DNA of 64,000 nt from Verrucomicrobiota bacterium (GTDB lineage: Bacteria; Verrucomicrobiota; Verrucomicrobiia; Opitutales; Coraliomargaritaceae), in assembly GCA_039815375.1 (NCBI GenBank), contig JBCBZJ010000003.1, positions 203,512 to 267,511 on the forward strand, in the 5' to 3' direction. A model generated the notes under the pieces. That model searched no databases. It was not told the origin of the DNA and saw only the letters and a program-made list of their open reading frames with translations. Shown here one piece after another: positions 12,338 through 30,943 of the stretch. Position numbers and translations under genes: made by a program. How positions within the stretch are numbered: position 1 is the stretch's first letter; the number at the start of each line of letters is the position of its first letter.

Positions 12338-12353
12338 CGGCACGCTAAGCGCT
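12338..12353 (+). promoter_or_regulatory. Candidate sigma54 (-24/-12) promoter
   Basis: CGGCACGCTAAGCGCT fits GG-N10-GC; predicted start site almost abuts ATG 12366. Confidence 0.4.
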
Positions 12354-12365
12354 GCATTGAGTTGA

Positions 12366-13346
12366 ATGCGGACACTGTTGTTTTGGAACAGGGAGCTGGT
12401 AACGCGCTTTGTTGTTTTATTTTTCGTATTATCTTTTTGTAGTTCGGCTCGCGCAGTGAGATCGATCCGTTTTCAACCGGACTGGTTTCCTAATGGGCAA
12501 TTCGCTGGATTCTTTTTAGCGGCAGAAAATGGCTACTATGAAGAATACGGGTTTTCTGTAGACTTTGCCGGATTCGGATTTGGAGTCGATTTTGTGGAGG
12601 AGGTTGTTTCGAAGCGTGCGCATTTTGGAACCATTGAAAGCTACATTTTTCTTGATCGCGTTGCGAAGGGGGAACCGCTTGTTGCCATTGGAGCGGTGCT
12701 CGCGACAAGCCCTGCGGGATACATTTATTTGAAGTCTTCCGGGATCGAGGAGTTTGCCGACCTCAAAGGTCGATTGCTTGGTGTGCACAATTATGCGGAA
12801 GGGCTTGTGCAACTCTTCGAAAAAGAAGCAGGATTAACTTTCGGAGCGGTCAATTTGAAGAAGGTTGAACATGATCTATCAATCCTTCTCGACGGGCAGG
12901 TTGATGCACACCAGGGCTTTGCTATAGACGAGATGCTTAGCTTGCAAAAAAAGACTGAAGAAGCAGTCGATATTCTTTTGTTTGAGGAGCTTGGTTTGCC
13001 AATGTATTCAATGGTTATCTATACTTCGAGAGAGACCTTGGCTGAAGAGCCGGAGATTGTAGAAGGCTTTCTCGAAGCGACGGCCAAGGGCTGGTCTAAG
13101 GCAATAGATCAGCCGGAGAAAGCGGCTGTCGTTATCAGCGAAAAGCATCCGCATCCTGAAGTAAAGGACACGATCTTAGCGGAGCAGATCAAGATGATTG
13201 GCGATTTTATTAATCTTGATGCTGCGAATCCGAAAATGCGCACAGAGCTAGAGCGTTGGGAATCCATGCAAAAAGCCTTTATCCAAAGTGGCTTGCTGGC
13301 AGAACCTGTAGATTTGAATACGTGTGTCCTGAATGAAAGAGACTAG
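12366..13346 (+). CDS. NMT1/THI5-family ABC substrate-binding protein
   Basis: Signal peptide, then FQPDWFPNGQFAGFFLAAENGYYEEYG; FLEATAKGW motif. Confidence 0.88.
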   Translation: MRTLLFWNRELVTRFVVLFFVLSFCSSARAVRSIRFQPDWFPNGQFAGFFLAAENGYYEEYGFSVDFAGFGFGVDFVEEVVSKRAHFGTIESYIFLDRVAKGEPLVAIGAVLATSPAGYIYLKSSGIEEFADLKGRLLGVHNYAEGLVQLFEKEAGLTFGAVNLKKVEHDLSILLDGQVDAHQGFAIDEMLSLQKKTEEAVDILLFEELGLPMYSMVIYTSRETLAEEPEIVEGFLEATAKGWSKAIDQPEKAAVVISEKHPHPEVKDTILAEQIKMIGDFINLDAANPKMRTELERWESMQKAFIQSGLLAEPVDLNTCVLNERD

Positions 13347-13369
13347 AGGAGTTCGGAACCAAGCTGCTG

Positions 13370-14314
13370 CTAGGGAGTTTTGAGAACTGCTGTTTCTTTG
13401 AGGTAAGCAGTAATGGCATCTAGCTCCGTATCTCCGAAATCCTTGTGGCGGGGCATGATCGTATCGGGATAGACTGTCTTTGGGTCAACGATGACGGAGC
13501 GAAGGTAGGCCTCGTTGTATTGAGCATGTGTTTGAAGGATGATAAAAGGACGCTCTGCAACATTGCCACCTACACTTCCGGGCCCGAGATGGCAGGTGCT
13601 ACATCGTTGTAGAAAGATTTGCCTTCCCGATCGGGCAATCTTGCTAAGCTGATCCATCGGAGGAGCGAAGTAGGGTGCGTATCGCTCTTCCGTATTTACC
13701 GCACGTATCCCTGACATTTGTGTCGCGGAGATCATGCCGAATTTCGGTGATTCCGGATAGCTGTCGAGCTGACCGTCGATAAAGACATAAAAAGGTTCCA
13801 GCGGTTCAATGTTACCTCCGAACCACGGCCAATTCCCGTCTTTGGGGCTTTCATTATTGTAGTAGAGCAGTAGCAGTGGATTCTTCTCTTCAATGTAGCT
13901 GATCTCCATGAAACTTTCCCAGCGGTCGGTGCATTCGAGCACGAGTCCGTCGCCGTGACTTTGGAGTCCGAGCAAATTGATTAGAGACTTGAGCGGGATG
14001 ACACCAAGTTGCGCTTTGCCAGCTTTGGGAACAATCTCGGATTCAATGAGCTTGTAACCATCCAGTTTGGCGAGATCACTTCTTGTCAGATATCCGTCCT
14101 TAGATTGCCAGGCTCCCGAAAAAAATAGTGAATCCTCCGCAGGCTTTTCAGATCGAAGAGTCAATCGACTTTCGGACCCTTGTGATGATGTGCAAAATAG
14201 TAAGGCTGAAAATACGATCCACAGAGCATTCGGAGGAAAAAAAGCTCTTGCTGAACCGCGAAGAGGCTTAGTCCAGAGCGGGCTTTGCCCAAGCATATCT
14301 ATTCGCATTCGCAA
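13370..14314 (-). CDS. Exported protein: sulfite-oxidase-fold (PruR-like) domain fused to C-terminal class I cytochrome c
   Basis: Signal peptide; GRQIFLQRCSTCH heme motif with distal TIMP Met; N-domain pattern LTRSDL..L / GVIPLKSLI / ECTDRWES / LEPFYVF; paralog of 21590-22495. Confidence 0.75.
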   Translation of the reverse strand: MRMRIDMLGQSPLWTKPLRGSARAFFPPNALWIVFSALLFCTSSQGSESRLTLRSEKPAEDSLFFSGAWQSKDGYLTRSDLAKLDGYKLIESEIVPKAGKAQLGVIPLKSLINLLGLQSHGDGLVLECTDRWESFMEISYIEEKNPLLLLYYNNESPKDGNWPWFGGNIEPLEPFYVFIDGQLDSYPESPKFGMISATQMSGIRAVNTEERYAPYFAPPMDQLSKIARSGRQIFLQRCSTCHLGPGSVGGNVAERPFIILQTHAQYNEAYLRSVIVDPKTVYPDTIMPRHKDFGDTELDAITAYLKETAVLKTP

Positions 14315-14382
14315 AGACTTTCTCCTCGAAGGCTTAAAATTTTGAAGTCTGGTAGAGCCTCGATCTCGAGGTATAAAAATAA

Positions 14383-14409
14383 GGTCGGGCGACAGATTGC
14401 CGCCCGACC
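14383..14409. terminator. GC-rich hairpin, probable terminator/attenuator after the second TonB receptor gene
   Basis: GGTCGGGCG-ACAGATTGC-CGCCCGACC with T-rich tracts following on both strands. Confidence 0.65.
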
Positions 14410-14431
14410 AGTTTTTTTTAACAAACCCCGA

Positions 14432-16945
14432 CTAGAATTTGTATTTGAAGGAAAAGATGTAAGTCCGCTCGGGTGCTTTTGTGACCAGTGTATTCGCTGC
14501 GAAAACCGGATCAGAGCCGAGGAAGTAATCCTCATCCGTCAGGTTTTCGATTGAAGCGCCGATCTCCCATTTTTCAGTGGAGTACTTTGCTCCGATACCA
14601 AAAATTAGTGCATCCGGGAGTTCAATTTGATGGTCAAAATCGAGGAAAAACTCTTCCTGATAGATCATGCTTGCGGTGATCTCAAAACCGTTCTCGAAGT
14701 CGTATGCAGCGAATAGCTTGAAGACCTGCTCAGGCGTTCCGGGATAGACAAGGTCGGTGTTCTCGGGAGGAATGCCGAAATTACCGTCAACGTAACGGTC
14801 GCGACCATCAAAGCTACCAGTGCCGAAGTTGCTGTTGAGTTCTCCTCCATATAAAGCCCAGTCCGCTTCAGAGAAGGGGATTGTCCGAAACGGCAATGGA
14901 TCCAGGCGCCTTACTTCCTGGGAAGTAAAGGAACCGATAACAGTAAGCTGGTCCGTGACGAGCCAGGTAGCTTCAACTTCGATGCCATCTCCTTCGAGGG
15001 CCTCACTTGCACCGCTGCGTCCGTTGAATGCACTTTGCTCCCACTCATAGTAGGCGATTGACGCGTAGAGTTTGTTGTCCAGCAGACCTGCTTTGACCCC
15101 AACTTCCCACATTTCGTTATCAGCAAAGTTCGCTTCGCCAACGACTGCACCACCTTGGGTTGGATCCATCGATGTGCCCTCTTGATAATTGCCGTATAGG
15201 AATACCCCTTCGATCGTCTCAAGGTTGAAACCGAGACTGAAATTGATGAAATCCGTATCTCCGTCTCCGTCGTCTTCGAAGGCTATAATGTCCAGCGGAT
15301 CAACTGACTGAAGCTCTGAAGGAACATCGGCATCGAATTCTGCGATCTCACCACGAACCGATGCATTAATAGTAAGGCGATCGTCCAGAAGCTTTGATTG
15401 GCTGTTGGCGAATAAGGCATATTGCATAAGCTCGGATTCAACGTTGCCGCCGATTCCGCCGAAACCACCATCCCAGAAGTTTACTCCGTCAAGAGTGGTC
15501 TGGCCACCTGCAAGAATAATCGAGTTCGCGCTGATGATTGGTTGAGTGATGTCACGACGACTGAATGGCTCGACCCAAAAGTCCTGAAGTTGCTTCGCAT
15601 CAGTGTAGCGTAAACTTACACCTAGATTGACGGTGGTGAACGGGATCAACGTGCGCTCTGTTATGAAAGCTTTGGTCGCCAGAACGGTCTGCTCCGAGTC
15701 AAAGGCATACCCATACGAAGAAAGTTTTTCAGTTTCAAGCGACTCGGCTAAGCCCTTGATTGTAAAGATTCGATCCGAATTGGAATCGAAGACCAAATCA
15801 CCAAACAGGACGATGTTGGTCGAATCAGCGAAGTCACTTGGGTCCGTTAGCACCTCATTCCCGTCAATAGACTGCGTGACGGCCTGACCCCCGTTATCAA
15901 AATACTGTTGAGTGTAGACGTATTTTTCAACCCCGTCGGAATCCACAATGAACGCCATGTCATTGATATCGCCAAACTGAGGAACCAGTGCCTCAGCGAC
16001 TGATCTCTCGAGGGCAAGTGCTACGTCATTACTCACCTGATTCCGATCGGCAAATCCAAGATTGTTACCGTTGGTGATGTTGATCGCCTCGCCAATCACA
16101 TACTGTCCATCATCGATAAGCTCTTGTGTGGGTCGGTTCCAACCAGCGTTTTCGTTTGATTTATAATCAAAATACTCTCCGCCGACAAAAACGGACATCC
16201 CATCTTTTGGACGGAACTTCATGGATGCATAGACCGAGGTGAAATCGTTCGCAAAGTTATCGTAATAACTCTCACCGTCCTGACTCGTTATCGAAACTCG
16301 AAAGGCGGCTGGTATTTCACCCGGGAGGAGAAAAGGGGAGCCATAATCTGCAGTGACCGTCTTTCGCCCCCAGTTATCCACTTCAAGTTCGATTGAACCG
16401 GATTCTTCGTCGAAGAATGGCGACTTCGGGATCAGGTTGACAAAACCGCCAACAAGCGTCGGTGAATAATCAGCAGGCGCAGGACCTTTGACGACTTCGA
16501 TCGCCTCCAACGAACCGAATGACAAAGGCATCTCATTCCGATTAAAGGCACGAAGCATTCCGTTAAGGTAAGTGCCGCCCCTTACGCCACGAATTGTAGG
16601 TGCTCCCGGCACGCCGTAGTAGTTGATTGCCTGGGTTCCGGCGCCGATCTTCTCAAGGTCTCGAAGGTCATCAATGTTGAACTTGTCGAGGATCTCAGGT
16701 GAAAGGAGTGTGACCGAGCGCGGCACTTCAAAAACGCTTACCGAGTCCCCAAAGAGCCCGGATATCTCCCGATCTGTAGGCATCACCGTATCGACAAGCG
16801 CCGATTCGGTTTCGTTGAGGATGAAGGTTTCAAGGACGATGGTTTCATCTTCCTCGTCCGCAAGGAGCGAACTGATTCCAACGGCTGGTAGCAAGAAGAT
16901 GCATCGAAGCATCTTCGAGGTCTGTATTCGCATATTGGCTGTCAT
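14432..16945 (-). CDS. TonB-dependent receptor (non-iron substrate likely)
   Basis: 837 aa, signal peptide, plug (VPRSVTLLS, IEVVKGPAP, GGFVNLIPK), ENLTDEDYF, C-terminal YKF; embedded in NMT1/deaminase island. Confidence 0.9.
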   Translation of the reverse strand: MTANMRIQTSKMLRCIFLLPAVGISSLLADEEDETIVLETFILNETESALVDTVMPTDREISGLFGDSVSVFEVPRSVTLLSPEILDKFNIDDLRDLEKIGAGTQAINYYGVPGAPTIRGVRGGTYLNGMLRAFNRNEMPLSFGSLEAIEVVKGPAPADYSPTLVGGFVNLIPKSPFFDEESGSIELEVDNWGRKTVTADYGSPFLLPGEIPAAFRVSITSQDGESYYDNFANDFTSVYASMKFRPKDGMSVFVGGEYFDYKSNENAGWNRPTQELIDDGQYVIGEAINITNGNNLGFADRNQVSNDVALALERSVAEALVPQFGDINDMAFIVDSDGVEKYVYTQQYFDNGGQAVTQSIDGNEVLTDPSDFADSTNIVLFGDLVFDSNSDRIFTIKGLAESLETEKLSSYGYAFDSEQTVLATKAFITERTLIPFTTVNLGVSLRYTDAKQLQDFWVEPFSRRDITQPIISANSIILAGGQTTLDGVNFWDGGFGGIGGNVESELMQYALFANSQSKLLDDRLTINASVRGEIAEFDADVPSELQSVDPLDIIAFEDDGDGDTDFINFSLGFNLETIEGVFLYGNYQEGTSMDPTQGGAVVGEANFADNEMWEVGVKAGLLDNKLYASIAYYEWEQSAFNGRSGASEALEGDGIEVEATWLVTDQLTVIGSFTSQEVRRLDPLPFRTIPFSEADWALYGGELNSNFGTGSFDGRDRYVDGNFGIPPENTDLVYPGTPEQVFKLFAAYDFENGFEITASMIYQEEFFLDFDHQIELPDALIFGIGAKYSTEKWEIGASIENLTDEDYFLGSDPVFAANTLVTKAPERTYIFSFKYKF

Positions 16946-17229
16946 TGTGTTGTTGGTTCGTGGTTAGTTGTTAGTCGAATCATAAAATGGAAAGTGATTA
17001 ACGGGTGGTGATGCCTGACCGCTTGTAGATGCCTGACGACAGGCATCGCTCTAAAGGCAACAAGCGAAACACGAACCGCTGAAAAATACTCTCGAACCTC
17101 CCTGCAGTATTTTTGCAGGTGGAGAATTACTTTCAGGTTGCGAGGGAAAAGGCTCCTCGCAGCCTGAAGTCCCATTGGCGATGCGGTGGTCATTGTTGGA
17201 TCATTTTTGCGCGGCCGAGACCACGTCTC

Positions 17230-17275
17230 GGAGCAATGACCCGCACGAATTTTTCGCGCTGACTGCTTCTACTCC
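17230..17275 (-). ncRNA. NMT1-motif (xanthine-I) riboswitch-like aptamer
   Basis: Minus strand GGAGUA-GAAGC-AGUCA-GCGCGAA-AAA-UUCGUGC-GGGUCA-UUGCUCC has an outer stem, GAAGC junction and inner hairpin. It matches the layout I recall for NMT1-motif RNAs (GGAGUAGAAGC..UCAGCG..GC..AUUGCUCC). It sits at the predicted 5' end of the receptor mRNA. Confidence 0.7.
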
Positions 17276-17289
17276 TAAGCGATTAATTG

Positions 17290-17305
17290 AGCTTAAGTCG
17301 TGCCA
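17290..17305 (-). promoter_or_regulatory. sigma54 promoter for riboswitch-TonB receptor transcript
   Basis: Minus strand TGGCACGACTTAAGCT (TGGCAC-N5-AAGC, GG-N10-GC); predicted TSS ~17279, ~4 nt before the aptamer. Confidence 0.7.
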
Positions 17306-17355
17306 TTCGAGTCCTAATGGTGATTTTTTGAATAAATATCACCTGATTCACTCAA

Positions 17356-18375
17356 TCATTTCTGGAAGGAAGCATCAAATCGCGTAGGCAGGAACTTGAG
17401 TGGAGCGACTTCATCAACTGTCATTTCCTTGTCGAGAAGGCCAATTTCGCTGAGTGTGTTAATCTGGTCTTGTATCCTGCTTTCACGGATCAGTCCGGTT
17501 TCGTCGATTTGATTCCTTCCGCTGATCAACGCGTTCTCCTTCATTGCGCTCAAACTATAAGCGAGAAACTCGTCAGTCATTTTTGGATTCAACGATGCGA
17601 TTTCGGCATTCGCTTTTTCCCGAGGCCCTTTCATGTAGCTCTCCCATCCGCGGATTGATGCAGCAATGAATGCCTTTACGATCTCAGGCCGATTTGTGGC
17701 AAGCGCTCGGCTCGTGTAGATTACGCGGTAAGGATCAAAGCCTGTATCCGCAAGCAGGAGCGTCCGCGTCGGCGTGTCTTCCTTAGCCATGTAATAAGGC
17801 TCGTTTGTGATAAAGCATTGTTGGATGAACTCCGGATCGCTGATAAATCGACTCATGCCGTAGTCGAGTGGAATGACGTCGACATCAATGTCGAACTTCC
17901 GACGCAGGACATCGACAAAGACCGCTCCCGGTGTGGTCATGATCTTCTTTCCGTCGAGGTCGCCGAATTCTTTTACATCGCTGCCAGCGTGGACAAGCAG
18001 AGCTTGGGGATCGTGCTGCATAAATGAGCCGGTAATGACAAGAGGAACTCCGCGCGCCGACTGAATGATGATGTCGTCACTACGGCCGATCGCAAAGTCG
18101 GCATTCTTGCTCGCTACCTTTTGGTAGGTCATCGCGTTCGGGCCGCCCTGATTGATGGTTACGCTAAGGCCAACTTCTTCATAGTAGCCTTCGGCTACGG
18201 CTTGGTAGAAGCCACCGTGCTCGGCTTGTGCATACCAATCGGTCTGCAGAACGATCCGGGTGAGCCCATTCTCGTCGGTTGTTTGCTTCTTCCCGCAGGC
18301 AGAAAACGCGAGCAAGATAAAGAGAGCAGTCGTGGTTCGAATGAGTGCTTGGATTTTGTTTTCGAAGATCTTCAT
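17356..18375 (-). CDS. NMT1/THI5-family ABC substrate-binding lipoprotein
   Basis: Lipobox-like FSAC; LQTDWYAQAEHGGFYQAVAEGYY motif. Confidence 0.9.
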   Translation of the reverse strand: MKIFENKIQALIRTTTALFILLAFSACGKKQTTDENGLTRIVLQTDWYAQAEHGGFYQAVAEGYYEEVGLSVTINQGGPNAMTYQKVASKNADFAIGRSDDIIIQSARGVPLVITGSFMQHDPQALLVHAGSDVKEFGDLDGKKIMTTPGAVFVDVLRRKFDIDVDVIPLDYGMSRFISDPEFIQQCFITNEPYYMAKEDTPTRTLLLADTGFDPYRVIYTSRALATNRPEIVKAFIAASIRGWESYMKGPREKANAEIASLNPKMTDEFLAYSLSAMKENALISGRNQIDETGLIRESRIQDQINTLSEIGLLDKEMTVDEVAPLKFLPTRFDASFQK

Positions 18376-18392: not shown

Positions 18393-19214
18393 TTAGTTGA
18401 CTTCGGACTTTCGAACCGAGTCGTGCCAGTTCTTAAGAAGATACCAGTGCAACAGGTTAACACAGCCCACGAAGATGAAGCCCAAAAGGCAGGCGACAAA
18501 AGCTGTGGCAAAGAGTTCTGGAATCTTCAGTTGCGAGTTGTAAACGATGACCATGAATCCGATGCCACCAACGCCACCCTGCGAGCTACCGGCAAAAATA
18601 TCTCCGGTAATTGCACCGATTGGAGCCAGTGTTCCCGCTATCTTCATCCCGGTCAGGAAGTAGGGCATCGCGTAGGGGACGCGCAGATAGATGATCTCCT
18701 GGGATTTTGTTGCGTTACACATTTCCATCAGGTCGAGCAGGTTTCGGTCAGTTGAGACAAGTCCCATCGTGGTGTTTGCGACGACAGGAAAGAACCCGAT
18801 AAGAAATGTGATTACAGTGATACTGGGAACGCCCTGCCCGAACCAAAGCACGAAGATCGGTGCAAGAACGACTACCGGTGTCATCTGAAGAACAAGCACC
18901 CAAGGATAGAGGCTTTGCTTTACCCATACTGCTGAGGCAAGGATCATCGAGAGCACATAACCCACGACAACCGCCATCAAAAATCCCAGAACCGCAGTGA
19001 AGGCCGTCTGACTGGCAGATGCCAGAAGCACCGCTCGTTCGGCGATCAGTGCATCAAAAATCTGGTGCGGGAATGGAATGACAATGCGCTGGGTATCAAA
19101 GCCCTCCGCTTGGCCGTATGCATAGGAAATAGAATACCAAATCAGAAGAATCGCTGCGCCCGAGATGATCGGCAGCATCCAGAATTGATTATGCTTCCAG
19201 ATTTTCGTCACCAT
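18393..19214 (-). CDS. ABC transporter permease (SsuC/TauC type)
   Basis: QMTPVVVLAPIFVLWFG, FFPVVANTTMGL, LRVPYAMPYFLTGMK. Confidence 0.92.
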   Translation of the reverse strand: MVTKIWKHNQFWMLPIISGAAILLIWYSISYAYGQAEGFDTQRIVIPFPHQIFDALIAERAVLLASASQTAFTAVLGFLMAVVVGYVLSMILASAVWVKQSLYPWVLVLQMTPVVVLAPIFVLWFGQGVPSITVITFLIGFFPVVANTTMGLVSTDRNLLDLMEMCNATKSQEIIYLRVPYAMPYFLTGMKIAGTLAPIGAITGDIFAGSSQGGVGGIGFMVIVYNSQLKIPELFATAFVACLLGFIFVGCVNLLHWYLLKNWHDSVRKSEVN

Positions 19215-19217: not shown

Positions 19218-19991
19218 TCAGTGCACGGTTCGAATTGCATGTGAGACTCGAGCAACGTAGTCGAGATATTCGCGTGTCTCTCGCAGCTCGGCATTGCGTT
19301 CTTGAGGCAGGTCGATTTCGATGACTTCTGAAATTCGACCCGGGTTTGCCGCGAGGACGATAATCTTCGTCGACAGGAAAACCGCTTCGGCGGCAGAGTG
19401 CGTCACAAAAAAGGCGGTCCATTGGTCGCGGGCATGTATTTTCAAAAGATCCTCGTTCAGATAATCCCGCGTCATTTCGTCCAAAGCACCAAACGGTTCG
19501 TCGAGGAGGAGGACCCGTGGCGAGAGCGTAAGAGATCTCGCGATGGAAACGCGCATCCGCATACCACCGGAAAGTTGCCAGGGGTAGCGATCGGTTGCAT
19601 GAGAGAGATTTACGAGATCGAGCATCTTTCTCGAGGTTTCAATCCTTCGGGATTTTTCGATGCCGCGAAGTTTGAGAGGCAGTTCAACGTTCCCCAGGAC
19701 ACGACGCCACGGGAGTAGGTTCGCCTCTTGAAAAATGAAGGACATTTCTTCGCGGGCATTTTTCGGAGTCATCCCATCCACCACGACATTGCCCTCAGTG
19801 ACCGAATATAGCCCGGCAATGATTTTCAAAAGCGTCGATTTGCCGCATCCACTTGGTCCAACCAAACTAATGAATGCACCTTTTTTCGCGCGGAAGTTGA
19901 TGTTATCGAGGACGGTTGTGTCGCCGAAGCGTTTTACAACGGACTCTAATTTAACCATCAGGTGGTCGGAAAATGGGCTTGGATCGCTCAC
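19218..19991 (-). CDS. ABC transporter ATP-binding protein (SsuB/TauB type)
   Basis: Walker A GPSGCGKST, LSGGMRMR, LLLDEPFGALD, FVTH. Confidence 0.95.
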   Translation of the reverse strand: MSDPSPFSDHLMVKLESVVKRFGDTTVLDNINFRAKKGAFISLVGPSGCGKSTLLKIIAGLYSVTEGNVVVDGMTPKNAREEMSFIFQEANLLPWRRVLGNVELPLKLRGIEKSRRIETSRKMLDLVNLSHATDRYPWQLSGGMRMRVSIARSLTLSPRVLLLDEPFGALDEMTRDYLNEDLLKIHARDQWTAFFVTHSAAEAVFLSTKIIVLAANPGRISEVIEIDLPQERNAELRETREYLDYVARVSHAIRTVH

Positions 19992-21476: not shown

Positions 21477-21510
21477 AGCAGTTTTTCTGCCATTCGCAAG
21501 AGTGTGCCAA
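21477..21510 (-). promoter_or_regulatory. Tandem sigma54 promoters for oxidoreductase-ABC operon
   Basis: Minus strand TTGGCACACTCTTGCG (21495-21510, consensus) directly followed by TGGCAGAAAAACTGCT (21477-21492). Confidence 0.8.
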
Positions 21511-21561: not shown

Positions 21562-21578
21562 TTGGTATGTCAACTGCT
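21562..21578 (+). promoter_or_regulatory. Divergent sigma54 promoter
   Basis: TTGGTATGTCAACTGCT, GG-N10-GC, upstream of the cytochrome c/SBP/deaminase genes. Confidence 0.65.
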
Positions 21579-22495: not shown

Positions 22496-23486
22496 TCCGA
22501 AGATTTGGTTTCCTGGTGCTTTGGCCCTTGCACTCGGAATTATGCTCGGTTGTGAGACAGTCGACGAAAACGAGGAAACTGCAGGGCTTGAAATGGAAAA
22601 AGTCGTTATGCAGTTCGACTGGATTTTTAACGCGCAGTTTGCGGGTTTTTACCAGGCGGTCGAGCAGGGCTTTTTTGCAGAGGAAGAGATCGAGCTTGAA
22701 ATGCGAGGAGGGCCAACTACGCCGCATATTGTTGATGGAACCCTGAATGAGCCAGCGATCAGCTTCGGAAGCTCCGAGAGTAATGTCCTCATTGCAGAGG
22801 CTGCTATGGGTAAGGATCTAAGGATCATCGGAACGATGTTCCAGTCTTCCCCGATGGGCTGGATGTATGTTCGCGGTAACGAGATTGAGAGCTTCACTGA
22901 TCTGGCTGATAAGCGAGTGGGTGTCCATGATGACGGCTGGCGGGTCATCAAGCTCCTCCTTCAGAAGCAGGGCGTCGATATTTCCAATTTGGAGACCTTC
23001 AACTGTGACTACGATCCGAAAGTGATACTCGAAGGCGAGGCAGATGCGATGCAGTGCTATTACATTGATGAGTTCGTAAAGCTGGAGCAGATGATCGGTG
23101 AGAAGGCCGGGGTCTTTCTGGCTCGGGACTTCGGATATGATGCATTCTCACAAGTGATGTTTACACATGCCGAAACAATTGAAAAGTATCCTGAAGTTGT
23201 TGAAGGGTTTCTCCGTGCGGTAAAGAAAGGGTGGGCCCATGCTTTTGAGAATCCCGAGGAAACAGTCGATCTGATCATCTCTAAATATAGTCCTGAGCTT
23301 GATCGGGACTATCAGCTCGGTTCTCTCGCAAAGATTGAGGAACTTATGGTTCCCGATGGCGGCGAGCTTCTGCAGCCAATTGAAAGCTCTGTTCTTACCG
23401 CTGGCCAGGAGCATCTTTTGAAATACAAGCTTATTGAAGGGACAGTCGACTTCGATAAAATCCTTCAGCAACAGTTCCTGCCTTAG
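22413..23486 (+). CDS. NMT1/THI5-family ABC substrate-binding lipoprotein
   Basis: Lipobox MLGC; MQFDWIFNAQFAGFYQAVEQGFF; true start probably ~22485. Confidence 0.88.
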   Translation: MLKCRNTRTMPMKRSMRSLLSFPKLKSSPKIWFPGALALALGIMLGCETVDENEETAGLEMEKVVMQFDWIFNAQFAGFYQAVEQGFFAEEEIELEMRGGPTTPHIVDGTLNEPAISFGSSESNVLIAEAAMGKDLRIIGTMFQSSPMGWMYVRGNEIESFTDLADKRVGVHDDGWRVIKLLLQKQGVDISNLETFNCDYDPKVILEGEADAMQCYYIDEFVKLEQMIGEKAGVFLARDFGYDAFSQVMFTHAETIEKYPEVVEGFLRAVKKGWAHAFENPEETVDLIISKYSPELDRDYQLGSLAKIEELMVPDGGELLQPIESSVLTAGQEHLLKYKLIEGTVDFDKILQQQFLP

Positions 23487-23599: not shown

Positions 23600-24892
23600 G
23601 TGACAGCAACTCTATATAAGAACGCGCAAGTTCCATCTGCTTTACTCAGTATCCCTGTAGAGGGAATCGCCGAGCCATCGACGGTTTGCGATATCGTAGT
23701 AGCGGAGGGTAGGATTATAGAGATCGCGGAACCGTGTTCTGTGAATCGCACTGACGTGACAGTTGTCGACCTTGACCAGCGGATTGTTTTTCCCGGATTT
23801 CTTGATGCACATGTGCATATCGACAAGGCTTTCAGTTGGGAACGTGCGCCAAATGTCCGTGGCGAATTTTGGGATGCGATCGAACTACTGGGTAAGGACA
23901 AGGATAACTGGACTGCGGAGGATCTTTACCAGCGGGGAACCTTTGCACTGCGATGCGCCGAAGCAAATGGCACTGTTGCGATCAGGACACATGTGGACAC
24001 TTGGATAGGAGGAGGCGAGGTAAGCCATGCAGCGATGCAAACGCTGCGGGAGGAATGGTCCGGTCGCATCCAACTTCAAACTGTGAGCCTTGCCGGCATC
24101 GATCAATACATGGAGCCGGGTGGCCGACGTATGGCTGAGTTTACGATGAGTTATCCGGACTCGCTTTTGGGGGGCATGCCGCAGATGAATCCCGATCTTG
24201 ATCAGCAACTCGACTATTTCTTCGACCTTGCTGCCGAGTATGGCGCTGCGGTCGATTTGCATGTCGATGAAAACGGAAATCCGTATGCCGAATGCCTGCG
24301 CAAAGTTGCTGAAACTGTCCTCCGAAAAGAGTTTCCGCATCCGGTCACCTGCGGGCATGTGTGTAGCCTCGCCGTGCAGGATCCGGAGCGAGCGCTTTCG
24401 ACGCTGCAACTGGTCAAAGAAGCAGGTATTCAAATCATTTCCCTGCCGATGTGTAATCTCTACCTTCAAGGTCGGCCTGCGGAGTCCGGACGGCGCGGCA
24501 CACCTCGCTGGCGAGGGGTCACTCTGCTTCACGAAATGATTGAAGCTGAGATACCTTTTGCCTGTGCCAGTGATAATGTCCGCGATGCGTTCTACGCTTG
24601 GGGTGACTTTGATATGTTCGAAGTCTTTACCCAGAGTATTCGTATCGCTCATTTGGATACAGAAATGGATGCGGCGTGCCGTGCGGTGACGGCTTCGGCT
24701 GCCGATATCATGGGTCTCAAAAATTTCGGATCGATTGAGGTGGGCGCCGATGCGCGACTGGTGGCGTTCGATTCCCGCACGTTCAACGAACTTCTATCAC
24801 GACCAACTCAATCACGTCAGCTCCTGGGCTTTAATTCTGCCGCAGGCAAGAGCCCCGATTACAGCGAACTTGGTGAATTAAAGCGCGTCTGA
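23600..24892 (+). CDS. Cytosine-deaminase-family amidohydrolase (pterin deaminase-like)
   Basis: DAHVHIDK, AIRTHVD, DLHVDE, GHVCSL, ASDNVRDAFYAWGDFD, and the TPRWRGVTLLHE motif of the CodA-like subgroup that clusters with FAD oxidoreductase and creatininase genes. Confidence 0.85.
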   Translation: MTATLYKNAQVPSALLSIPVEGIAEPSTVCDIVVAEGRIIEIAEPCSVNRTDVTVVDLDQRIVFPGFLDAHVHIDKAFSWERAPNVRGEFWDAIELLGKDKDNWTAEDLYQRGTFALRCAEANGTVAIRTHVDTWIGGGEVSHAAMQTLREEWSGRIQLQTVSLAGIDQYMEPGGRRMAEFTMSYPDSLLGGMPQMNPDLDQQLDYFFDLAAEYGAAVDLHVDENGNPYAECLRKVAETVLRKEFPHPVTCGHVCSLAVQDPERALSTLQLVKEAGIQIISLPMCNLYLQGRPAESGRRGTPRWRGVTLLHEMIEAEIPFACASDNVRDAFYAWGDFDMFEVFTQSIRIAHLDTEMDAACRAVTASAADIMGLKNFGSIEVGADARLVAFDSRTFNELLSRPTQSRQLLGFNSAAGKSPDYSELGELKRV

Positions 24893-24919: not shown

Positions 24920-25426
24920 ATGATACTCATTCGACTTTCAAAAATCCTGCCCGTCCTATCGGTCGCGTTTTTCCTGTTTCTTGTCGTTCTCAACAACCTG
25001 ACGGACTACGGCTCGAACTACCTCTTCGTGGAGAACGTATTGGGTATGACGACTGTCTTCGAAGGCAACCAGCTGATGTGGCGTGCGATTGAAAGTCCTC
25101 TGGTCCATACGGCTTTCTATTTTTCGATCATCCTGTGGGAGGCGGCGGCAATGGCGCTGTGCGCATGGGGTGGATGGAAATTGCTTCAGGTCATCAAGGG
25201 CTCGAAGGCGGAATTTGAGGCTGCAAAGCAAATCGCGATCGCCGGGATTGTCTTGAGCATGCTGCAGTGGTTTGTGGCCTTCATAACGGTTGGCGGCGAG
25301 TGGTTTACGATGTGGCAGTCACAAATCTGGAACGGACAGGATGCCGCCTTCCGCATGTTTGCCTGTCTCGGGATTATACTTATCTTCCTTTATCTGCCTG
25401 AATTCGGAGAAAAGGAAGATGCTTAG
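24920..25426 (+). CDS. DUF2165-family small integral membrane protein
   Basis: NNLTDYGSNYLFVENVLGM, WRAI, GGEWFTMWQSQIWNGQDAAFR. Confidence 0.85.
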   Translation: MILIRLSKILPVLSVAFFLFLVVLNNLTDYGSNYLFVENVLGMTTVFEGNQLMWRAIESPLVHTAFYFSIILWEAAAMALCAWGGWKLLQVIKGSKAEFEAAKQIAIAGIVLSMLQWFVAFITVGGEWFTMWQSQIWNGQDAAFRMFACLGIILIFLYLPEFGEKEDA

Positions 25427-25509
25427 TCGATTTACGAGCTTTGGCCGGTTCGTCCGTAGATCTTAATAAGACGCGTGTTTTGAGTATGGGATATGCTTTG
25501 AAAAAAGAA

Positions 25510-26967
25510 ATGAGAATGACAAGGCTTTGGCTTCGAGCTACTCAGGTTCTGCTTATCCTGTTATTTTTTGATTTTCAGGCCGATGCCGTTACATGGGTCC
25601 GTTCCGACTGCATTCTGACCCTTGCAGATGGTGAGGAGACCCCGATCAATGGCTACCTGAAGATCAGTTCCGAGGGGACAATTGTTGCGATTGAAAGTGG
25701 TGATATTCCCGACGGCGTTACCGGGCGATTTGTGGATGCAATGGGGAAGATCGTGATGCCGGGCTTCGTTTCGGGGCACAACCATCTTTGGCAGAGTGCG
25801 TTTCGAGGTCTGGCAAGTGATCAAGAGCTCTATGGTTGGTTGGAGAGCCTTCACTGGACCTACGGCGATTTCTTCGAAGAGGACGACATGTATACTTTTA
25901 CGCTGTACGGCGCACTGGATCAGCTGGGCCATGGAATCACGACAACGCTTAATCATACCCAGAATATTGCGCCCACGTATGCTCACTATCTCGAGCAATT
26001 CGATGCAGAAATGGACGCGGGGCAGAACTTTGTCTTCTCATATGTGCTCGACCGTAATGAAAAAGACCCGGCACGCCGAAAGGCAAAGTTGGTCGAGCTA
26101 ATGGAGGCAACCGAGGCGATCGAAGATCAACATCCTTGCCTTGGGTTTGGTTTACATGGCGTAGGGGTTTATTTCAGTGCCGAGGTTCACCGCGAAGAGG
26201 TTGCTATCGCCAAGGAGCTCGATCTGGACATGCAGATCCACTACCTTGAAGAAAAAGACCAATCGCTGAAAAAAGGACAAAGTCAGTTTGCTGATCTCCA
26301 TGCGGATGGTGGTGTCTGGGACGGTTTGGTTTATGCGCACTTCATTCACGTAACGGATGAGATTTTGAAGACCTCGGCGGAGGCGGGTGCAAAGATGATT
26401 TGGAATCCTCTCTCAAACGGTCGGTTGGCATCGGGTCTTGCCGATATTCCGCGCTACCTCGATGAAGGTCTTTTGATCGGGATGGGTGTTGACGGAACTG
26501 CCAGTGCCGACGTCTGTGACCCATTCCAAAATATGCGGATGGGTATGTATGCGCTTCGAATGCGCGATTCCGAGGCCAGCGTTATGTCGTGCTATGAGGT
26601 GCTACGACTTCACACCTTGAAAACTGCGGAAGTGCTCGAGGTCGAAGATCGAGTTGGTAGTCTGGAGGTCGGGAAGTATGGGGATTTTCTTGTTGTTGAG
26701 CCAGAGTCTCCGGTTTTTGACCCCTATGCTTCCCTCGTGATGGCGACCAGTGCCGGGGATATTTCTGGAGTCTGGGTTCGCGGTATCGAGCGAGTGCGCC
26801 GAGGAAAGCTGACTGAACATTCGATGAGCAAAGTGAAGAAAGAGATGGTCACCCGCGTTGCGCGAATCGTGGCTGCACAGAAAGTTTCGGCTCAAATGAG
26901 TGGGGGGACTCTTTCGGGCACCTCGGTTTTTCCGGGATGTTTTGGGTGCTGCGGATTGGGGCACTAA
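25510..26967 (+). CDS. Exported amidohydrolase of the guanine/8-oxoguanine/isoxanthopterin/SAH deaminase group
   Basis: MPGFVSGHNHLWQ, QIHYLEE, AHFIH, WNPLSNGRLASG, GMGVDG; signal peptide MRMTRLWLRATQVLLILLFFDFQADA from ATG 25510. Confidence 0.85.
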   Translation: MRMTRLWLRATQVLLILLFFDFQADAVTWVRSDCILTLADGEETPINGYLKISSEGTIVAIESGDIPDGVTGRFVDAMGKIVMPGFVSGHNHLWQSAFRGLASDQELYGWLESLHWTYGDFFEEDDMYTFTLYGALDQLGHGITTTLNHTQNIAPTYAHYLEQFDAEMDAGQNFVFSYVLDRNEKDPARRKAKLVELMEATEAIEDQHPCLGFGLHGVGVYFSAEVHREEVAIAKELDLDMQIHYLEEKDQSLKKGQSQFADLHADGGVWDGLVYAHFIHVTDEILKTSAEAGAKMIWNPLSNGRLASGLADIPRYLDEGLLIGMGVDGTASADVCDPFQNMRMGMYALRMRDSEASVMSCYEVLRLHTLKTAEVLEVEDRVGSLEVGKYGDFLVVEPESPVFDPYASLVMATSAGDISGVWVRGIERVRRGKLTEHSMSKVKKEMVTRVARIVAAQKVSAQMSGGTLSGTSVFPGCFGCCGLGH

Positions 26968-28298
26968 GTTCTCTCTTTCGACGGACTGATCGCTTCCTGA
27001 GGATTGTTAGCGATCCATGAGAGTGCAAATACGATTGGGCAAAACACAATACAAAGCAGAATTGCCGTGGTATAGCCTTTGGTTACTTCGTAGCTGACTC
27101 CAAAGACGAGTGGACCCAAAGCACTGGTGACGACAGTTGCACCCGTCACCCATCCGTTAATTGCACCAAGGTGTTTCCTTCCAAAAAAACGTCCCCACGG
27201 GACGTTAATGAGGACACTGAAGGCTCCCCAGGATATGCCACTGCCTACAATGTAGCACCAACGCCATCCGAGGTCTGAGAAGCTAAGTGCGCCAAGTAGC
27301 GTGAGGCCCTGTGCAAAAACCATCATCGCGAGCATGTACTTTAGTTTAATTCGCTCTGTATAGGCTCCGAGAAGAAAGGTGGTTGCGACTTGAAAGATGA
27401 CCGCCGGCAAAAAGACATCGACTGCTGTTTGCCGGTCGAGCTCGTGTGACGCGGCGAGTCCGACAATATGAAAAGAGATGCCTGTCCCGATCAGTCCGTT
27501 GAGTGCAAGTCCGGCAACGAAGATCCAAAAGGTCCTGGTGCGAATTGCCTCGGAGCTGGAAAAATCTCGAAGCGCGGGAGTGCGGATTTCTGCACGGGAT
27601 TCTGCTTTTACCGGGTCGACCGGCACACCGCAGTCCTCGGGACTGTCGCGAAAGAAAAGGTAGGCGAGTGTGGTCATACCAAAAGCGAAGACTGAACCTA
27701 CGATAATCCATGTTTGTTGCCAACCAATGGAGATGACGAAGCCATTCAAAAGAAGCGGTGCAGAGGAAAAGCTTAACGAAATCATTGTACCGTTGATCGC
27801 TGCGGCAATTCCTCGACGGCCCTCGAACCATCGAAAAACCATCGAGCGGCAGGTTGTCATGGCAAAGCTCAATCCCATTAGGCGCATCCCAAAGAAGGCA
27901 AAGAACACGAGTGCAAGAGCCAGGGGTGCACCGCCAAAGTAGGAGCTCAGTCCAACATAGATTCGATCCAACAGTCCTGTTGCAATCAGGCTAAGGCCCA
28001 GTCCGAAGAAGCTCAGGCACCCCATCGGGCGGGCGCCGATCTGATCGACCAGCCTCCCGGCAAGCGGCGCACAGAGCCCGGCAAGTAGCGTCCCCAGTGT
28101 ATAAGCTATGGCGAAGTTTCCGCGCTCCAATTCCAATGATGAAATCATTTCGTCAACAAAGACGCTCATCCCGGGTGGACTTCCCGGGACTGCTGCAATC
28201 ATGCCGATGGTCCCAACCACAAGAATCGTCCAACCATAGTAACCCGGCCATTTGCGGACGTCGAACGGTCGCTTCGAATCGAAAAGCTTTAGGCGCAT
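26964..28298 (-). CDS. MFS transporter (OFA/MCT-like)
   Basis: YYGWTIL, GRLVDQIGAR, RWFEGRRG, FFGRKHLGAING; ~12 TM. Confidence 0.88.
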   Translation of the reverse strand: MRLKLFDSKRPFDVRKWPGYYGWTILVVGTIGMIAAVPGSPPGMSVFVDEMISSLELERGNFAIAYTLGTLLAGLCAPLAGRLVDQIGARPMGCLSFFGLGLSLIATGLLDRIYVGLSSYFGGAPLALALVFFAFFGMRLMGLSFAMTTCRSMVFRWFEGRRGIAAAINGTMISLSFSSAPLLLNGFVISIGWQQTWIIVGSVFAFGMTTLAYLFFRDSPEDCGVPVDPVKAESRAEIRTPALRDFSSSEAIRTRTFWIFVAGLALNGLIGTGISFHIVGLAASHELDRQTAVDVFLPAVIFQVATTFLLGAYTERIKLKYMLAMMVFAQGLTLLGALSFSDLGWRWCYIVGSGISWGAFSVLINVPWGRFFGRKHLGAINGWVTGATVVTSALGPLVFGVSYEVTKGYTTAILLCIVFCPIVFALSWIANNPQEAISPSKERT

Positions 28299-28423
28299 GG
28301 CATGGATTTCTATTTGCTTGAATGAAGGCGCGGGCGAGAGTCAGAGGGATAGTGGATTGTGGCCGGTCCTAAAACGGCCTGTAGGAACCATCGCTCTCCA
28401 GCGATACGCACCTTTCCGGCAGG

Positions 28424-28816
28424 TTATTTTGCAGGTGCTGCCGCGACGACTTCGATTTCGACGGTAAACTCCTCTCTGGCAAAGCCGGAAACGATGACCA
28501 AGGTTGAAGCGGGAGCTGGTTCGGAAAAGAGTTCGTCACGAACTTTCATGTAGGCAGGCAGGTGTTCCCGTCCGGTAACGAAGGCATTTATCCGAACGAT
28601 ATCCGCCAGATTCATATCTGCGGAGTTGAGAATTGCTTCGACATTTTCGAAACAGAGCCGGGTCTGGGTTTCTGTATCCTCCGGGATTTTTCCGCTCTTT
28701 GTAATTCCGAGTTGGCCCGAGCAAAAAAGGAGCCGAGATCCTTCAGGGATTTCAAGCCCGTGGCTGTATTTTGCGAAAGGGGCGATAATCTCATCTGGCG
28801 TGTGATGTTTGAACAT
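28424..28816 (-). CDS. RidA/YjgF/UK114 family protein
   Basis: YSHG, LFCSGQLG, PASTLVIVSGF, VEIEVVA; ATG at 28816. Confidence 0.9.
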   Translation of the reverse strand: MFKHHTPDEIIAPFAKYSHGLEIPEGSRLLFCSGQLGITKSGKIPEDTETQTRLCFENVEAILNSADMNLADIVRINAFVTGREHLPAYMKVRDELFSEPAPASTLVIVSGFAREEFTVEIEVVAAAPAK

Positions 28817-28878
28817 AGTTTCCCAATTAGGGAGCACTTCAAATACCAATTCGACTATCTACTGATGAAGTGATGAAT

Positions 28879-28895
28879 CTGGTATGGAAGTAGCT
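28879..28895 (+). promoter_or_regulatory. sigma54 promoter of creatininase-family gene
   Basis: CTGGTATGGAAGTAGCT, GG-N10-GC; near-identical to the element at 30927-30943. Confidence 0.6.
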
Positions 28896-28907
28896 CGAAT
28901 GGCAGGC

Positions 28908-29714
28908 ATGGCTACAGAACGCTTTCTCCCCCACATGACTTGGCCCGAGATCAAGAATCTCGATAAAACGAATGCTCTGGTCATTCTTCCGGTCGGGGCA
29001 ACCGAGCAACACGGCCATCATCTTCCGGTCTATACGGATACGCTGATCAGTTCAGGAGTTTTGAGACGGGCTCTGGAAGTCTTACCCGAAGAAGTTCCAG
29101 CCTACATGCTTTCACCGATTACCATTAGCAAAAGCAACGAGCATCGCGGATTTCCAGGGACGCTTTGGATTAGTGCCAAGACGCTCTATGACGTCCTCTT
29201 TGAGATTGGCCGAAGCGTTTATGAATCGGGCTTTCGGAAGATGTGTTTTTTTAATGGGCACGGCGGAAACGTGGGTATTCTACATGCCGTGACTCGCGAC
29301 ATCAGGGATGAGTTTGGCATGACGGTCTTTGCGGGATCGGCCGGCACTTTTCTTGAGTCTCCTGAATTGCCGGACGGGGTCGATGCGCGCGAGAAGAAAT
29401 TCGGAATTCACGCGAACTTTGGAGAGACGGCCCTGATCAAGGCTCTGGCTCCCGAACTCGTTAAGGAGGACAAAGCTCGACCTTGCTTCCCGAACTATCC
29501 GGATTCAGGCATTGGTCTGGTCGGTCCGGGCTACGCACAGTGGAAGACAGAAGACTGGTCATCGACCGGCGTCTTCGGTGACCCGACTCATGTCACCGAA
29601 GAAATCGCAGCAGATTATTTGGACCGTGCCGTCAAAGGAACAGTTCGCTTCCTTACCGAGATGGTTGATTTCGAATATGATCGTCCCAAGATCCAGGATC
29701 GACCTGTAGATTAA
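28908..29714 (+). CDS. Creatininase-family amidohydrolase
   Basis: LPVGATEQHGHHLPVYTD, SNEHRGFPGTL, FNGHGGN, GIHANFGET, GVFGDP; start uncertain (28884-28908). Confidence 0.92.
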   Translation: MATERFLPHMTWPEIKNLDKTNALVILPVGATEQHGHHLPVYTDTLISSGVLRRALEVLPEEVPAYMLSPITISKSNEHRGFPGTLWISAKTLYDVLFEIGRSVYESGFRKMCFFNGHGGNVGILHAVTRDIRDEFGMTVFAGSAGTFLESPELPDGVDAREKKFGIHANFGETALIKALAPELVKEDKARPCFPNYPDSGIGLVGPGYAQWKTEDWSSTGVFGDPTHVTEEIAADYLDRAVKGTVRFLTEMVDFEYDRPKIQDRPVD

Positions 29715-29741
29715 TCTATCTGTTTGTTGCTTAGGGATAGG

Positions 29742-30221
29742 TTATTCTTCACCCGTATAGTAGTCCGCTTCAGTCGGGTAGATACATTCACCCTGCGGTT
29801 TGAGCATTCGCTTCCCGGTGTTCGGATAGGTTGTGATGTCTACCGGATTCTGATCGGCGATGACATAGTAAACCAGGTCAGATGCCGAGTCGTTCATGAT
29901 TTGATGGCTCTCGCCCGGGCAAAAGACAAAATGATCACCTGGTCCGATTTCAGTTGGAGAGTCGGTCGAATCGAAAACAAGTCCGGTTCCCGAAAGAATG
30001 ATGTAGAACTCCGTCTGCGCTGCGTGAGCATGAAGCGGCCAGTTCTTTTTTCCCGGTGGAAGGGTCGCAAGTTCGATATCGAAGGGATGTCCGTTGGCCC
30101 AGGGGCCCTTGTCTTTAATCCCACCGAGTGCGAGCGAGACGTGTTGACGCTGAATTTGAAAATCTCCTTTTGGAGAGGCGACTGTTTCAGTCTCAATTTC
30201 TGATGGGATTACTTTCTTCAT
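29742..30221 (-). CDS. Cupin-domain protein
   Basis: LPPGKKNWPLHAHAAQTEFYIILSGTG...GPGD...PGESHQIMN. Confidence 0.88.
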   Translation of the reverse strand: MKKVIPSEIETETVASPKGDFQIQRQHVSLALGGIKDKGPWANGHPFDIELATLPPGKKNWPLHAHAAQTEFYIILSGTGLVFDSTDSPTEIGPGDHFVFCPGESHQIMNDSASDLVYYVIADQNPVDITTYPNTGKRMLKPQGECIYPTEADYYTGEE

Positions 30222-30906
30222 ATTGATTAGCCCAAGTGAAGACCTGTTCTATCAGAATACGTCCGTCACTGCTGTCTTCCTCATAATCTTCAGGGTGAAA
30301 CTGCACTCCGATAAGCGGTTTGGTTTCGTGCTGGATTGCCTGGATTTTTGTTACTGGGCTGGTTGCGATGGTTTGGAATCCGTCGGGCAGGCTTTTCACT
30401 TCCCAAAAGTGATGTTGGAAGACTTCCATGCGCGCGCTCGCACGATGAAATGCCGTGCCCGGCTTTCGACCTAACTCGATAGAGCAAAATCCTGTTTCTG
30501 AACGCGCCGTTGCTGGAATGATGGGGTCAATTCTCCCTTCGCCGGAGACGGTCTTGTTTCCGATCGGCCCGATGGACGCCCCGTAGGTTTTGGCAAGAAG
30601 CTGGAAGCTGCCGCAAATGCAAAAGGTCGGGTAGCCCGGTGCCCGAAAGTAACTTTGAATCGGTGTGATTTCATCGGCGGCATATTCGCTGTGGTCCATG
30701 TTGTGGCCTGAGAAAATTACTACACGCGGGTTTAGCTCTTCGAGTAGCTTTGCCGAGAATCTGCTGTAATGCAGGAGATAGCAGGGCTCGGCTCCGATTT
30801 CTTCGAAGCGATACTTTGCCGCCACCCGTCGTCTGCAGACTTCCGCCCATAACTCTGGGTGCTCTACACGAAGCTTTTGGTGCTCCATATCAACAAAAAC
30901 ATTCAT
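30193..30906 (-). CDS. Class I glutamine amidotransferase-like / gamma-glutamyl hydrolase-like protein
   Basis: Nucleophile elbow FCICGSFQLL and GVQFHPE His-Glu; no synthase partner adjacent. Confidence 0.82.
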   Translation of the reverse strand: MNVFVDMEHQKLRVEHPELWAEVCRRRVAAKYRFEEIGAEPCYLLHYSRFSAKLLEELNPRVVIFSGHNMDHSEYAADEITPIQSYFRAPGYPTFCICGSFQLLAKTYGASIGPIGNKTVSGEGRIDPIIPATARSETGFCSIELGRKPGTAFHRASARMEVFQHHFWEVKSLPDGFQTIATSPVTKIQAIQHETKPLIGVQFHPEDYEEDSSDGRILIEQVFTWANQYEESNPIRN

Positions 30907-30926
30907 AGAATTCGAGCACTCTACGG

Positions 30927-30943
30927 AGCTACTTTCGTTCCAG
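30927..30943 (-). promoter_or_regulatory. sigma54 promoter of GATase-cupin pair
   Basis: Minus strand CTGGAACGAAAGTAGCT, GG-N10-GC, ~20 nt upstream of ATG 30906. Confidence 0.6.

Follow-up and report, generated by a model that had tools for sequence, protein, structure and literature searches.

The window analysed here is a 64,000-nucleotide stretch of DNA from a Verrucomicrobiota bacterium of the Coraliomargaritaceae (GCA_039815375.1, contig JBCBZJ010000003.1, positions 203,512 to 267,511), and between its positions 12366 and 30906 lies a cluster of 17 intact genes with a G+C content of 0.48-0.52, similar to that of the left flank. Profile searches of the window proteins place these genes in the families named by an earlier first-pass annotation of the same DNA; every gene listed there is present and intact, although its count of 16 falls short of its own list, which also sums to 17. 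The cluster is real, conserved and partly known in kind, and on balance we favour a role in taking up and breaking down pteridines, compounds of all cells that include the pterins and lumazines left by decaying folate and pigments, for their nitrogen, likely under sigma-54 control; the predicted route uses a flavin oxygenase and differs from the published one through xanthine-8-carboxylate. The genes central to this reading are given below, with the number of loci holding a homologue, first among all 47 found with the flavin adenine dinucleotide (FAD) protein and then among the 22 flanked by 8 kb or more on either side; these counts are neither independent nor additive, because most loci come from related Opitutaceae and may overlap the relatives' genomes, and two are labelled as coming from outside the Verrucomicrobia, possibly through errors of binning.

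14432-16945, minus strand: TonB-dependent receptor (Plug, PF07715; 34/47, 15/22)
17356-18375, minus strand: SBP2, NMT1/THI5-type lipoprotein, the binding protein of the core ATP-binding cassette (ABC) importer (PF09084; 36/47, 20/22)
18393-19214, minus strand: ABC permease (PF00528; 40/47, 20/22)
19218-19991, minus strand: ABC ATPase, TauB/NrtD-like (PF00005; 44/47, a few of these being unrelated ATPases; 22/22)
20061-21452, minus strand: VAO-family FAD enzyme, 6V42/6V43 homologue (phmmer and Foldseek)
21590-22495, plus strand: CytC2, exported, PruR-fold domain with cytochrome c (CMSCH), the conserved type, start uncertain (family in 28/47, 16/22)
23600-24892, plus strand: CodA-like amidohydrolase, cytoplasmic, family PRK07583, predicted pterin deaminase (NF005759; 38/47, 21/22)
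24920-25426, plus strand: DUF2165 membrane protein (PF09933; 35/47, 20/22)
28424-28816, minus strand: RidA/Rid-family protein (PF01042; 21/47, 12/22), start moved to the ATG at 28816, below the box at 28848-28833
28908-29714, plus strand: creatininase-family metallo-amidohydrolase (PF02633; 23/47, 15/22), start inferred from locus L012

The importer, the CodA-like deaminase, the FAD enzyme, the creatininase-family protein and RidA form a recurring core in Opitutales, Rhizobium and Pantoea, and this neighbourhood check bears out the co-conservation that the first-pass annotation had suspected. On the Rhizobium and Pantoea plasmids, an NMT1-type ABC importer, a deaminase, a 6V42/6V43-like FAD enzyme and a creatininase are clustered, as in the window, and RidA accompanies them in two of the three cassettes read. 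SBP2 is 34-35% identical to the binding protein of the Rhizobium cassettes and 31% to that of Pantoea, and RidA is 53% identical to its counterpart in the R. etli cassette. All three proteobacterial cassettes (Rhizobium loci L061 and L062, Pantoea locus L075) have in common a LysR gene and a reductase of the cytoplasm, either NAD(P)H oxidoreductase or PDR/VanB, whereas the Opitutales version adds the TonB receptor, DUF2165, a PruR-fold/cytochrome c protein and sigma-54-type boxes. Homologues of the cassette reductases were found in none of the 61 loci searched, and the plasmid collection yielded no PruR-cytochrome c fusion. Clustering of open reading frames (ORFs) across the loci, swamped by shadow frames, yielded no further universal member. 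Its distribution is patchy, with the CodA gene in 4 of the 41 nearest genomes and in none of the 8 others of the genus. Among 401 genomes of the phylum, the FAD gene is present in 8 and the cytochrome fusion in 7, all of them within those 8.

The FAD enzyme supplies a clue to a pteridine-like substrate that is stronger than any on which the first-pass annotation had based the same proposal. Among solved structures it matches 6V42/6V43 with E 1e-77, the next match standing at 6e-9 (phmmer), and its model lies on 6V42 with a TM score of 0.87 and 35% identity (Foldseek). The match in fold and sequence to the 6V42 type is full-length, and the C-terminal WNHTT, HLE and NPH motifs are conserved. Indeed, the 6V42 entry is titled 'flavin oxygenase with cofactor bound involved in folate catabolism'. 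Our literature search on 6V42, which had subscription papers and theses outside its scope, found no paper, and the pathway may be in print. The two entries are said to stem from a folate-catabolism project of the Begley laboratory, and 6V43 presumably holds lumazine. A second FAD paralogue (38%) with a CocE/NonD hydrolase is found in the FAD-ABC operon of some relatives (L072:17376-18764 and L073:1428-3080).

The CodA-like protein passes NF005759 (482.5 bits against a cut-off of 403) and is 44% identical to the enzyme of the Rhizobium cassette. HxH[LI]DK is kept in 40/41 family members and SDN[VT]RD in 37/41, both being common to the Rhizobium enzyme, unlike E. coli CodA. Arad3529, in work attributed to Fan in 2013, is reportedly a CodA-like pterin deaminase. 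The deaminase of the Pantoea cassette has 399 amino acids and RidA immediately downstream, and the pterin deaminase (PDA) of Variovorax F1 likewise has 399 amino acids with an 'endoribonuclease' gene downstream (PMC9513972). The window enzyme is a CodA-like amidohydrolase like Arad3529 and the Variovorax F1 PDA, with a RidA-type neighbour in the case of the Variovorax enzyme, and CDA-like proteins of Rhizobiales were deemed likely pterin deaminases by Doi et al., 2025 (PMC12391406). We predict that the CodA-like enzyme is a pterin deaminase. DUF2165 lies less than 400 bp from CodA in 32 of the 33 loci holding both, and therefore a role as exporter or accessory of the deaminase is as possible as one as redox partner; it could serve as the latter as well. 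No paper with DUF2165 in its title or abstract turned up in the literature search, and an atlas feature search returned nothing named for it.

The metal motifs of the creatininase-family protein are intact, and it scores 76 against the TIGR04448 cut-off of 235, below creatininase proper (EC 3.5.2.10), with a weak ArfB match. Its tree is unresolved at the base, and the window copy groups with that of L012 alone, outside the main Opitutales clade. In many Opitutales loci, a divergent second creatininase-like gene, possibly encoding a non-catalytic subunit, stands beside the normal one (L016:7213-7989, L026:6872-7684, L027:6701-7474 and L073:9741-10484).

The N-terminal domain of the cytochrome proteins, for which the atlas feature search gave Oxidored_molyb at 0.78 as a lead only, has the PruR fold, as had been proposed. 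The AlphaFold model of CytC1, the divergent paralogue of CytC2, has a pLDDT of 84, its Foldseek ranks 1-7 are all PruR structures, and comparison with 7rkb gives a VIA Z of 15.0 at an rmsd of 3.2 over 139 aligned positions. As in PruR (PMC11194511; 7kos, 7kou, 7rkb, 7kp2), this is an exported, degenerate sulfite-oxidase (SUOX) fold without the molybdenum (Mo) cysteine; in the conserved type, N/D-x-Y stands at the position of the pterin site. The D-G-Y of the family, present in 28/31 sequences and carried by CytC2, aligns to PruR N102-x-Y104, whose N102 and Y104 contact the pterin and hold neopterin (PMC11194511), and the family E-F (P-Y in CytC2) aligns to PruR P69-W70. The aromatic residue of a further K-x-P-[WF] motif falls outside the stretch aligned to PruR, in which W160 is a pterin contact. 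Unlike PruR (~170 amino acids), the window proteins are fused to heme domains and reach ~270-300 amino acids, and elsewhere some are also fused to an ABC binding protein. PruR is bicistronic with a dcpA-type gene and acts in signalling, the only role described in the PruR literature examined, whereas the neighbours in the window are binding proteins in a catabolic context. The cluster suggests a redox role for the fold. Nine of 19 scanned proteins, chosen for atypical length from the best 150 representatives, are NMT1-PruR-cytochrome fusions. Their binding domain resembles SBP2 (38-59%) more than SBP1 or SBP3 (20-29%), and we propose the cytochrome protein as a partner of SBP2. One CytC1-type protein (P0030), on a single short contig, is fused to a pterin-4a-carbinolamine dehydratase. 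The literature search, with most subscription papers outside its scope, gave no description of a PruR-cytochrome fusion or of this cassette. A second PruR-cytochrome context is seen at L068:884-9296 (contig C100 of the relative's genome G017), where a CytC1-type gene accompanies an SBP2-like protein, two Rieske oxygenases, a SnoaL protein and a TonB receptor.

Together, the FAD match to 6V42, the PruR fold and a deaminase-RidA arrangement like that of a characterised pterin deaminase point to pteridines. Furthermore, hydropathy heuristics assign signal-like N-termini to the receptor, the three binding proteins, both cytochrome fusions and a second deaminase, and none to the FAD enzyme or CodA, in support of the periplasmic stage envisaged in the first-pass annotation. 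The remaining genes of the cluster, with one gene and one hairpin beside them, are as follows.

10668-12053, plus strand: major facilitator superfamily (MFS) transporter, an accessory 18th gene (PF07690), beside SBP1 and exported-deaminase paralogues in L069 (64%) and L072 (44%)
12366-13346, plus strand: SBP1, NMT1/THI5-type binding protein, accessory (PF09084), orthologues in few relatives
13370-14314, minus strand: CytC1, exported, PruR-fold domain with monoheme cytochrome c (CSTCH), the listed TTG probably lying 5' of the true start
14383-14409, minus strand: terminator-like intrinsic hairpin separating the receptor gene from that of CytC1 (12 pairs, 9 of them G-C, T tail)
22413-23486, plus strand: SBP3, NMT1/THI5-type binding protein, accessory (PF09084; 4/47 loci)
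25516-26967, plus strand: guanine/8-oxoguanine-deaminase-like amidohydrolase, likely exported, accessory, of an unnamed family (no NCBIfam cut-off reached; 4/47, 3/22)
26964-28298, minus strand: MFS transporter, OFA/MCT-like, accessory (0/47 loci, yet inside the cluster in L005 and L073)
29742-30221, minus strand: cupin, accessory (PF07883; 0/47 loci; homologues in 4/7 relatives, on other contigs or distant)
30193-30906, minus strand: class-I GATase-like hydrolase, accessory (PF00117; 0/47 loci; in 1/7 relatives, on a different contig)

That one of the two deaminases is exported finds heuristic support in its family, where a signal-like N-terminus is present in 102 of 109 usable members (11 of 120 were skipped), compared with 4 of 40 CodA controls; the window copy itself, with a hydrophobic core of 2.88 and one charged residue in its best 10-mer, narrowly misses the strict filter. 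It fits no named family, scoring 158 bits against the 532 cut-off of PRK08203. At the PCS/PTT motif after strand 4, which we take to mark 8-oxoguanine/isoxanthopterin deaminases, the 'APCS' of 3hpa is aligned with 'GVGVY'. HxHxxQ, presumably associated with guanine-type enzymes, is kept in 105/109 members; the family has 944 relatives, with up to three paralogues in the relative's genome G209. SBP1, SBP3, CytC1, this deaminase, both MFS transporters, the cupin and the GATase are lineage additions, which probably widen the range to purine-like compounds. Core membership of the cupin and the GATase is rejected; both are absent from all 47 related loci. The idea that all genes form one system is not supported, given these counts and a riboswitch kept in 1/7 relatives. 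A single tight system is also opposed by the terminator between CytC1 and the receptor, the box-less CytC1 and, in three relatives, the distance of its orthologues from the FAD gene.

A -24/-12 motif had been assigned to most transcription units, and this stood in part. A strict search for TGGCAY-N5-TTGC gives 11 matches against 8.5 expected, not above chance. With a looser GG-N10-GC score, whose weights are ad hoc, boxes are found in 7 of 14 upstream regions, and no such core lies 5' of CytC1, CodA or the MFS gene in the window. The boxes, together with the RNA element described below, are:

12338-12353, plus strand: sigma-54-type box 5' of SBP1, weak (score 3.5)
17226-17279, minus strand: xanthine (NMT1-motif) riboswitch aptamer RF03054, heading a leader of ~330 nt (54.7 bits; gathering score 36)
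17290-17305, minus strand: sigma-54-type box of the riboswitch/receptor transcript (score 4.5; aligned in 3/3 sequences)
21477-21492, minus strand: sigma-54-type box of the FAD-ABC operon (score 4.0)
21563-21578, plus strand: sigma-54-type box of the CytC2-SBP3-CodA-DUF2165-deaminase run (score 4.0)
28833-28848, minus strand: sigma-54-type box of RidA, divergent from the creatininase box (score 3.5)
28880-28895, plus strand: sigma-54-type box of the creatininase gene (score 4.5)
30927-30942, minus strand: sigma-54-type box of the GATase-cupin pair (score 4.5)

Scores of at least 4 occur in 2.7% of 5000 random windows and in 5.1% of 1806 ORF-upstream windows, a background measured on 211-nt windows and somewhat higher for the 280-480 nt windows of the loci. 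The FAD-gene box reaches this score in 35/46 related loci, in a constant position 23-63 nt ahead of the start, and so do boxes upstream of the receptor in 26/34 loci and of CodA in 24/38, against only 1/23 for creatininase; we regard the boxes as credible because they are conserved across related loci. A sigma-70 scan gave 7 sites against 16 expected. The genome carrying the window (G000; other G numbers denote genomes of relatives) encodes rpoN and gave three strong matches to activators, and its 69 boxed sites, chance hits among them, include glutamine-synthetase-like, nitrate-type ABC, guanine-deaminase-like and purine-permease/transport-like genes, named by eye from their N-termini. The conserved boxes, the presence of rpoN and this gene set fit nitrogen scavenging and support the nitrogen-type control proposed earlier.

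The predicted NMT1-type RNA is confirmed as the RF03054 aptamer, which is present as a single copy in G000, ~280 nt 5' of the TonB receptor; an Rfam search of the window gave no match besides this riboswitch and 16S rRNA. As with reported xanthine-I riboswitches (PMC7373994), the match is above cut-off and NMT1/THI5 genes and deaminases lie nearby. The reported elements are OFF switches, known from Proteobacteria only and mostly directly before an ORF (PMC7373994), whereas this one is from Verrucomicrobiota and stands far from its receptor gene. The layout of box and aptamer is kept in G000, L009 and G017, and the aptamer was not found in 6/7 relatives' genomes having the core (present in 1/7 genomes and 1/7 loci). 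The riboswitch, like the exported deaminase, second cytochrome, cupin and GATase, is a lineage extra. The leader between 16945 and 17225 is strongly structured (z -3.5), though its folding showed no clear expression platform, and beyond the aptamer it is poorly conserved save for a TTCGACTA motif ahead of the start.

The order of events that we propose would begin with the TonB receptor taking the pteridine ring into the periplasm, where binding and a likely change of redox state would fall to the PruR-fold/cytochrome c protein, with SBP2 and perhaps DUF2165. SBP2 and the ABC pair would then import the ring, the CodA-like enzyme would free the 2-amino group to give a lumazine, and the 6V42-type flavoenzyme would oxidise the ring. 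Finally, a ring amide or formamide would be split by the creatininase-family enzyme, with RidA serving to remove imine or enamine intermediates. Gene content, co-conservation, folds, boxes and riboswitch are direct observations, and the substrate, the order of steps and all of the chemistry are inferred. A more detailed version is tentative: the TonB receptor would act as outer-membrane pteridine importer, and the PruR-fold/cytochrome c protein would be an enzyme with a cofactor-free sulfite-oxidase pocket for its substrate, using its heme, tied to the membrane by DUF2165, to oxidise or reduce the pterin ahead of import by SBP2. This enzyme would replace the cytoplasmic reductase of the proteobacterial cassette and supply an unpublished flavin-oxygenase pathway, of which xanthine, sensed by the riboswitch, would be the product in this lineage.

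Several observations weigh against pteridine breakdown. The substrate is not settled by an identity of 35% to 6V42, and the function of 6V42 is known from its PDB title alone; the PRK07583 family carries the name 'cytosine deaminase'; and the nearest solved relatives of SBP2, a clostridial-type ABC binding protein (E 1e-13) and ThiY (5e-8), are both weak. CytC1 is without the D-G-Y and K-x-P-W motifs, having D-R-W at the PruR N-x-Y position, and CytC2 carries F in place of the W seen in 24 of the 28 family members that bear the motif. CytC1 neighbours Rieske oxygenases in G017, at a distance from the FAD gene, and stands outside the cluster in G019 and G322; the 47 loci, being mostly from related Opitutaceae, are not independent; and the xanthine riboswitch is a purine signal. 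Thiamine salvage as the core purpose is rejected, the ThiY similarity being weak and the Rfam matches of the window being xanthine and 16S rRNA only.

The riboswitch on the receptor and the guanine-type HxHxxQ of the exported deaminase would be explained directly if the substrates were purine- or pyrimidine-derived, such as oxidised or ring-opened purines (e.g. formamidopyrimidines) or modified cytosines, and the pteridine resemblances were ancestral. Formamidopyrimidine deformylases occur within the creatininase family (PMC9478397), to which the weak ArfB match can be added, as can the ThiY-like fold of the binding protein and the wealth of purine uptake among the other sigma-54 genes of G000. 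This explanation is nonetheless unlikely in our judgement: it leaves unexplained the 6V42 match, the PruR pocket and the pterin-dehydratase fusion, the riboswitch is missing from six of seven core-bearing relatives, and G000 already has its purine catabolism elsewhere, on contigs C27 and C40. Salvage of folate or pterin cofactors as the main purpose, in which the cytochrome protein would adjust the redox state in the periplasm and breakdown would come second, appears less probable still. PruR prefers reduced pterins (PMC13259868), and neither FolK nor FolP was found in G033 or G209 (2/5 cluster-bearing genomes, both 100% complete), possible folate auxotrophs carrying the cluster; therefore, salvage may matter in some lineages. 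FolK and FolP are present in G000, G017 and G019, however, and G000 therefore has no folate requirement. The sigma-54 boxes and the deaminase speak for nitrogen release, and deamination destroys the cofactor.

The first-pass annotation had placed the cluster on the classical route, from pterin through lumazine, 6,7-dihydroxylumazine and xanthine-8-carboxylate to xanthine, and knew of no gene set for it. Genes of that route were in fact assigned in Cupriavidus LA-1 (Doi et al., 2025; PMC12391406), where cluster I holds LuDH (Mo), DHLI (an amidohydrolase-2 pair), XCDC (the UbiD decarboxylase, UbiD/UbiX) and putative purine/pyrimidine transporters, and carbon use was shown. The two clusters would share a start by a pterin deaminase and a link to xanthine, and the riboswitch, xanthine dehydrogenase-like genes and unlinked amidohydrolase-2 genes of G000 would suit the LA-1 route, which we nevertheless consider highly improbable here. 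No Mo-hydroxylase, amidohydrolase-2 pair or UbiD is encoded in the window cluster; Mo and amidohydrolase-2 family members lie elsewhere in G000, its two Mo-domain genes standing, by eye, in xdh-like and ior-like contexts. UbiD (PF01977) was not found in G000 (99.9% complete) or in 5/5 cluster-bearing relatives, with the control positive in 9/14. Since this UbiD was not found in six genomes, the window most likely encodes a second route, which is predicted from sequence to run from deamination to a lumazine through flavin-dependent ring oxidation and amide or formamide hydrolysis to RidA clean-up. The riboswitch, a pointer from three genomes only, hints at xanthine as the product, which could arise by chemistry other than that of LA-1.

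Only one genetically defined route of pteridine breakdown was found in our literature search (LA-1, 2025), and pteridine breakdown in the window, if correct, points to a second, widespread 6V42-type route with a full gene set. It also offers candidate functions for DUF2165, for the unnamed exported deaminase family and for this class of TonB receptor. The manner in which pterins cross membranes is described as unknown in a 2026 review (PMC13259868).

Further genes of G000 resemble parts of the cluster. A paralogous TonB receptor (25% identity) at C10:2900-5347 has its own sigma-54-type box amid purine-salvage-like genes and suggests a receptor family for nitrogen heterocycles. At C1:5215-16000, a sigma-54-boxed ABC importer is found with a second creatininase and glutamine-synthetase-like and urea-carboxylase-like genes (by eye), and at C12:88073-89409, a weak homologue of the NAD(P)H oxidoreductase of the Rhizobium cassette lies beside an amidohydrolase-2 gene. 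Within the window, a 16S rRNA gene at 62960-64000 is truncated by the window end, and a sigma-54-type box at 46139-46153 precedes a 464-codon ORF on the plus strand from ~46168, by eye an NCS2 xanthine/uracil permease-like protein.

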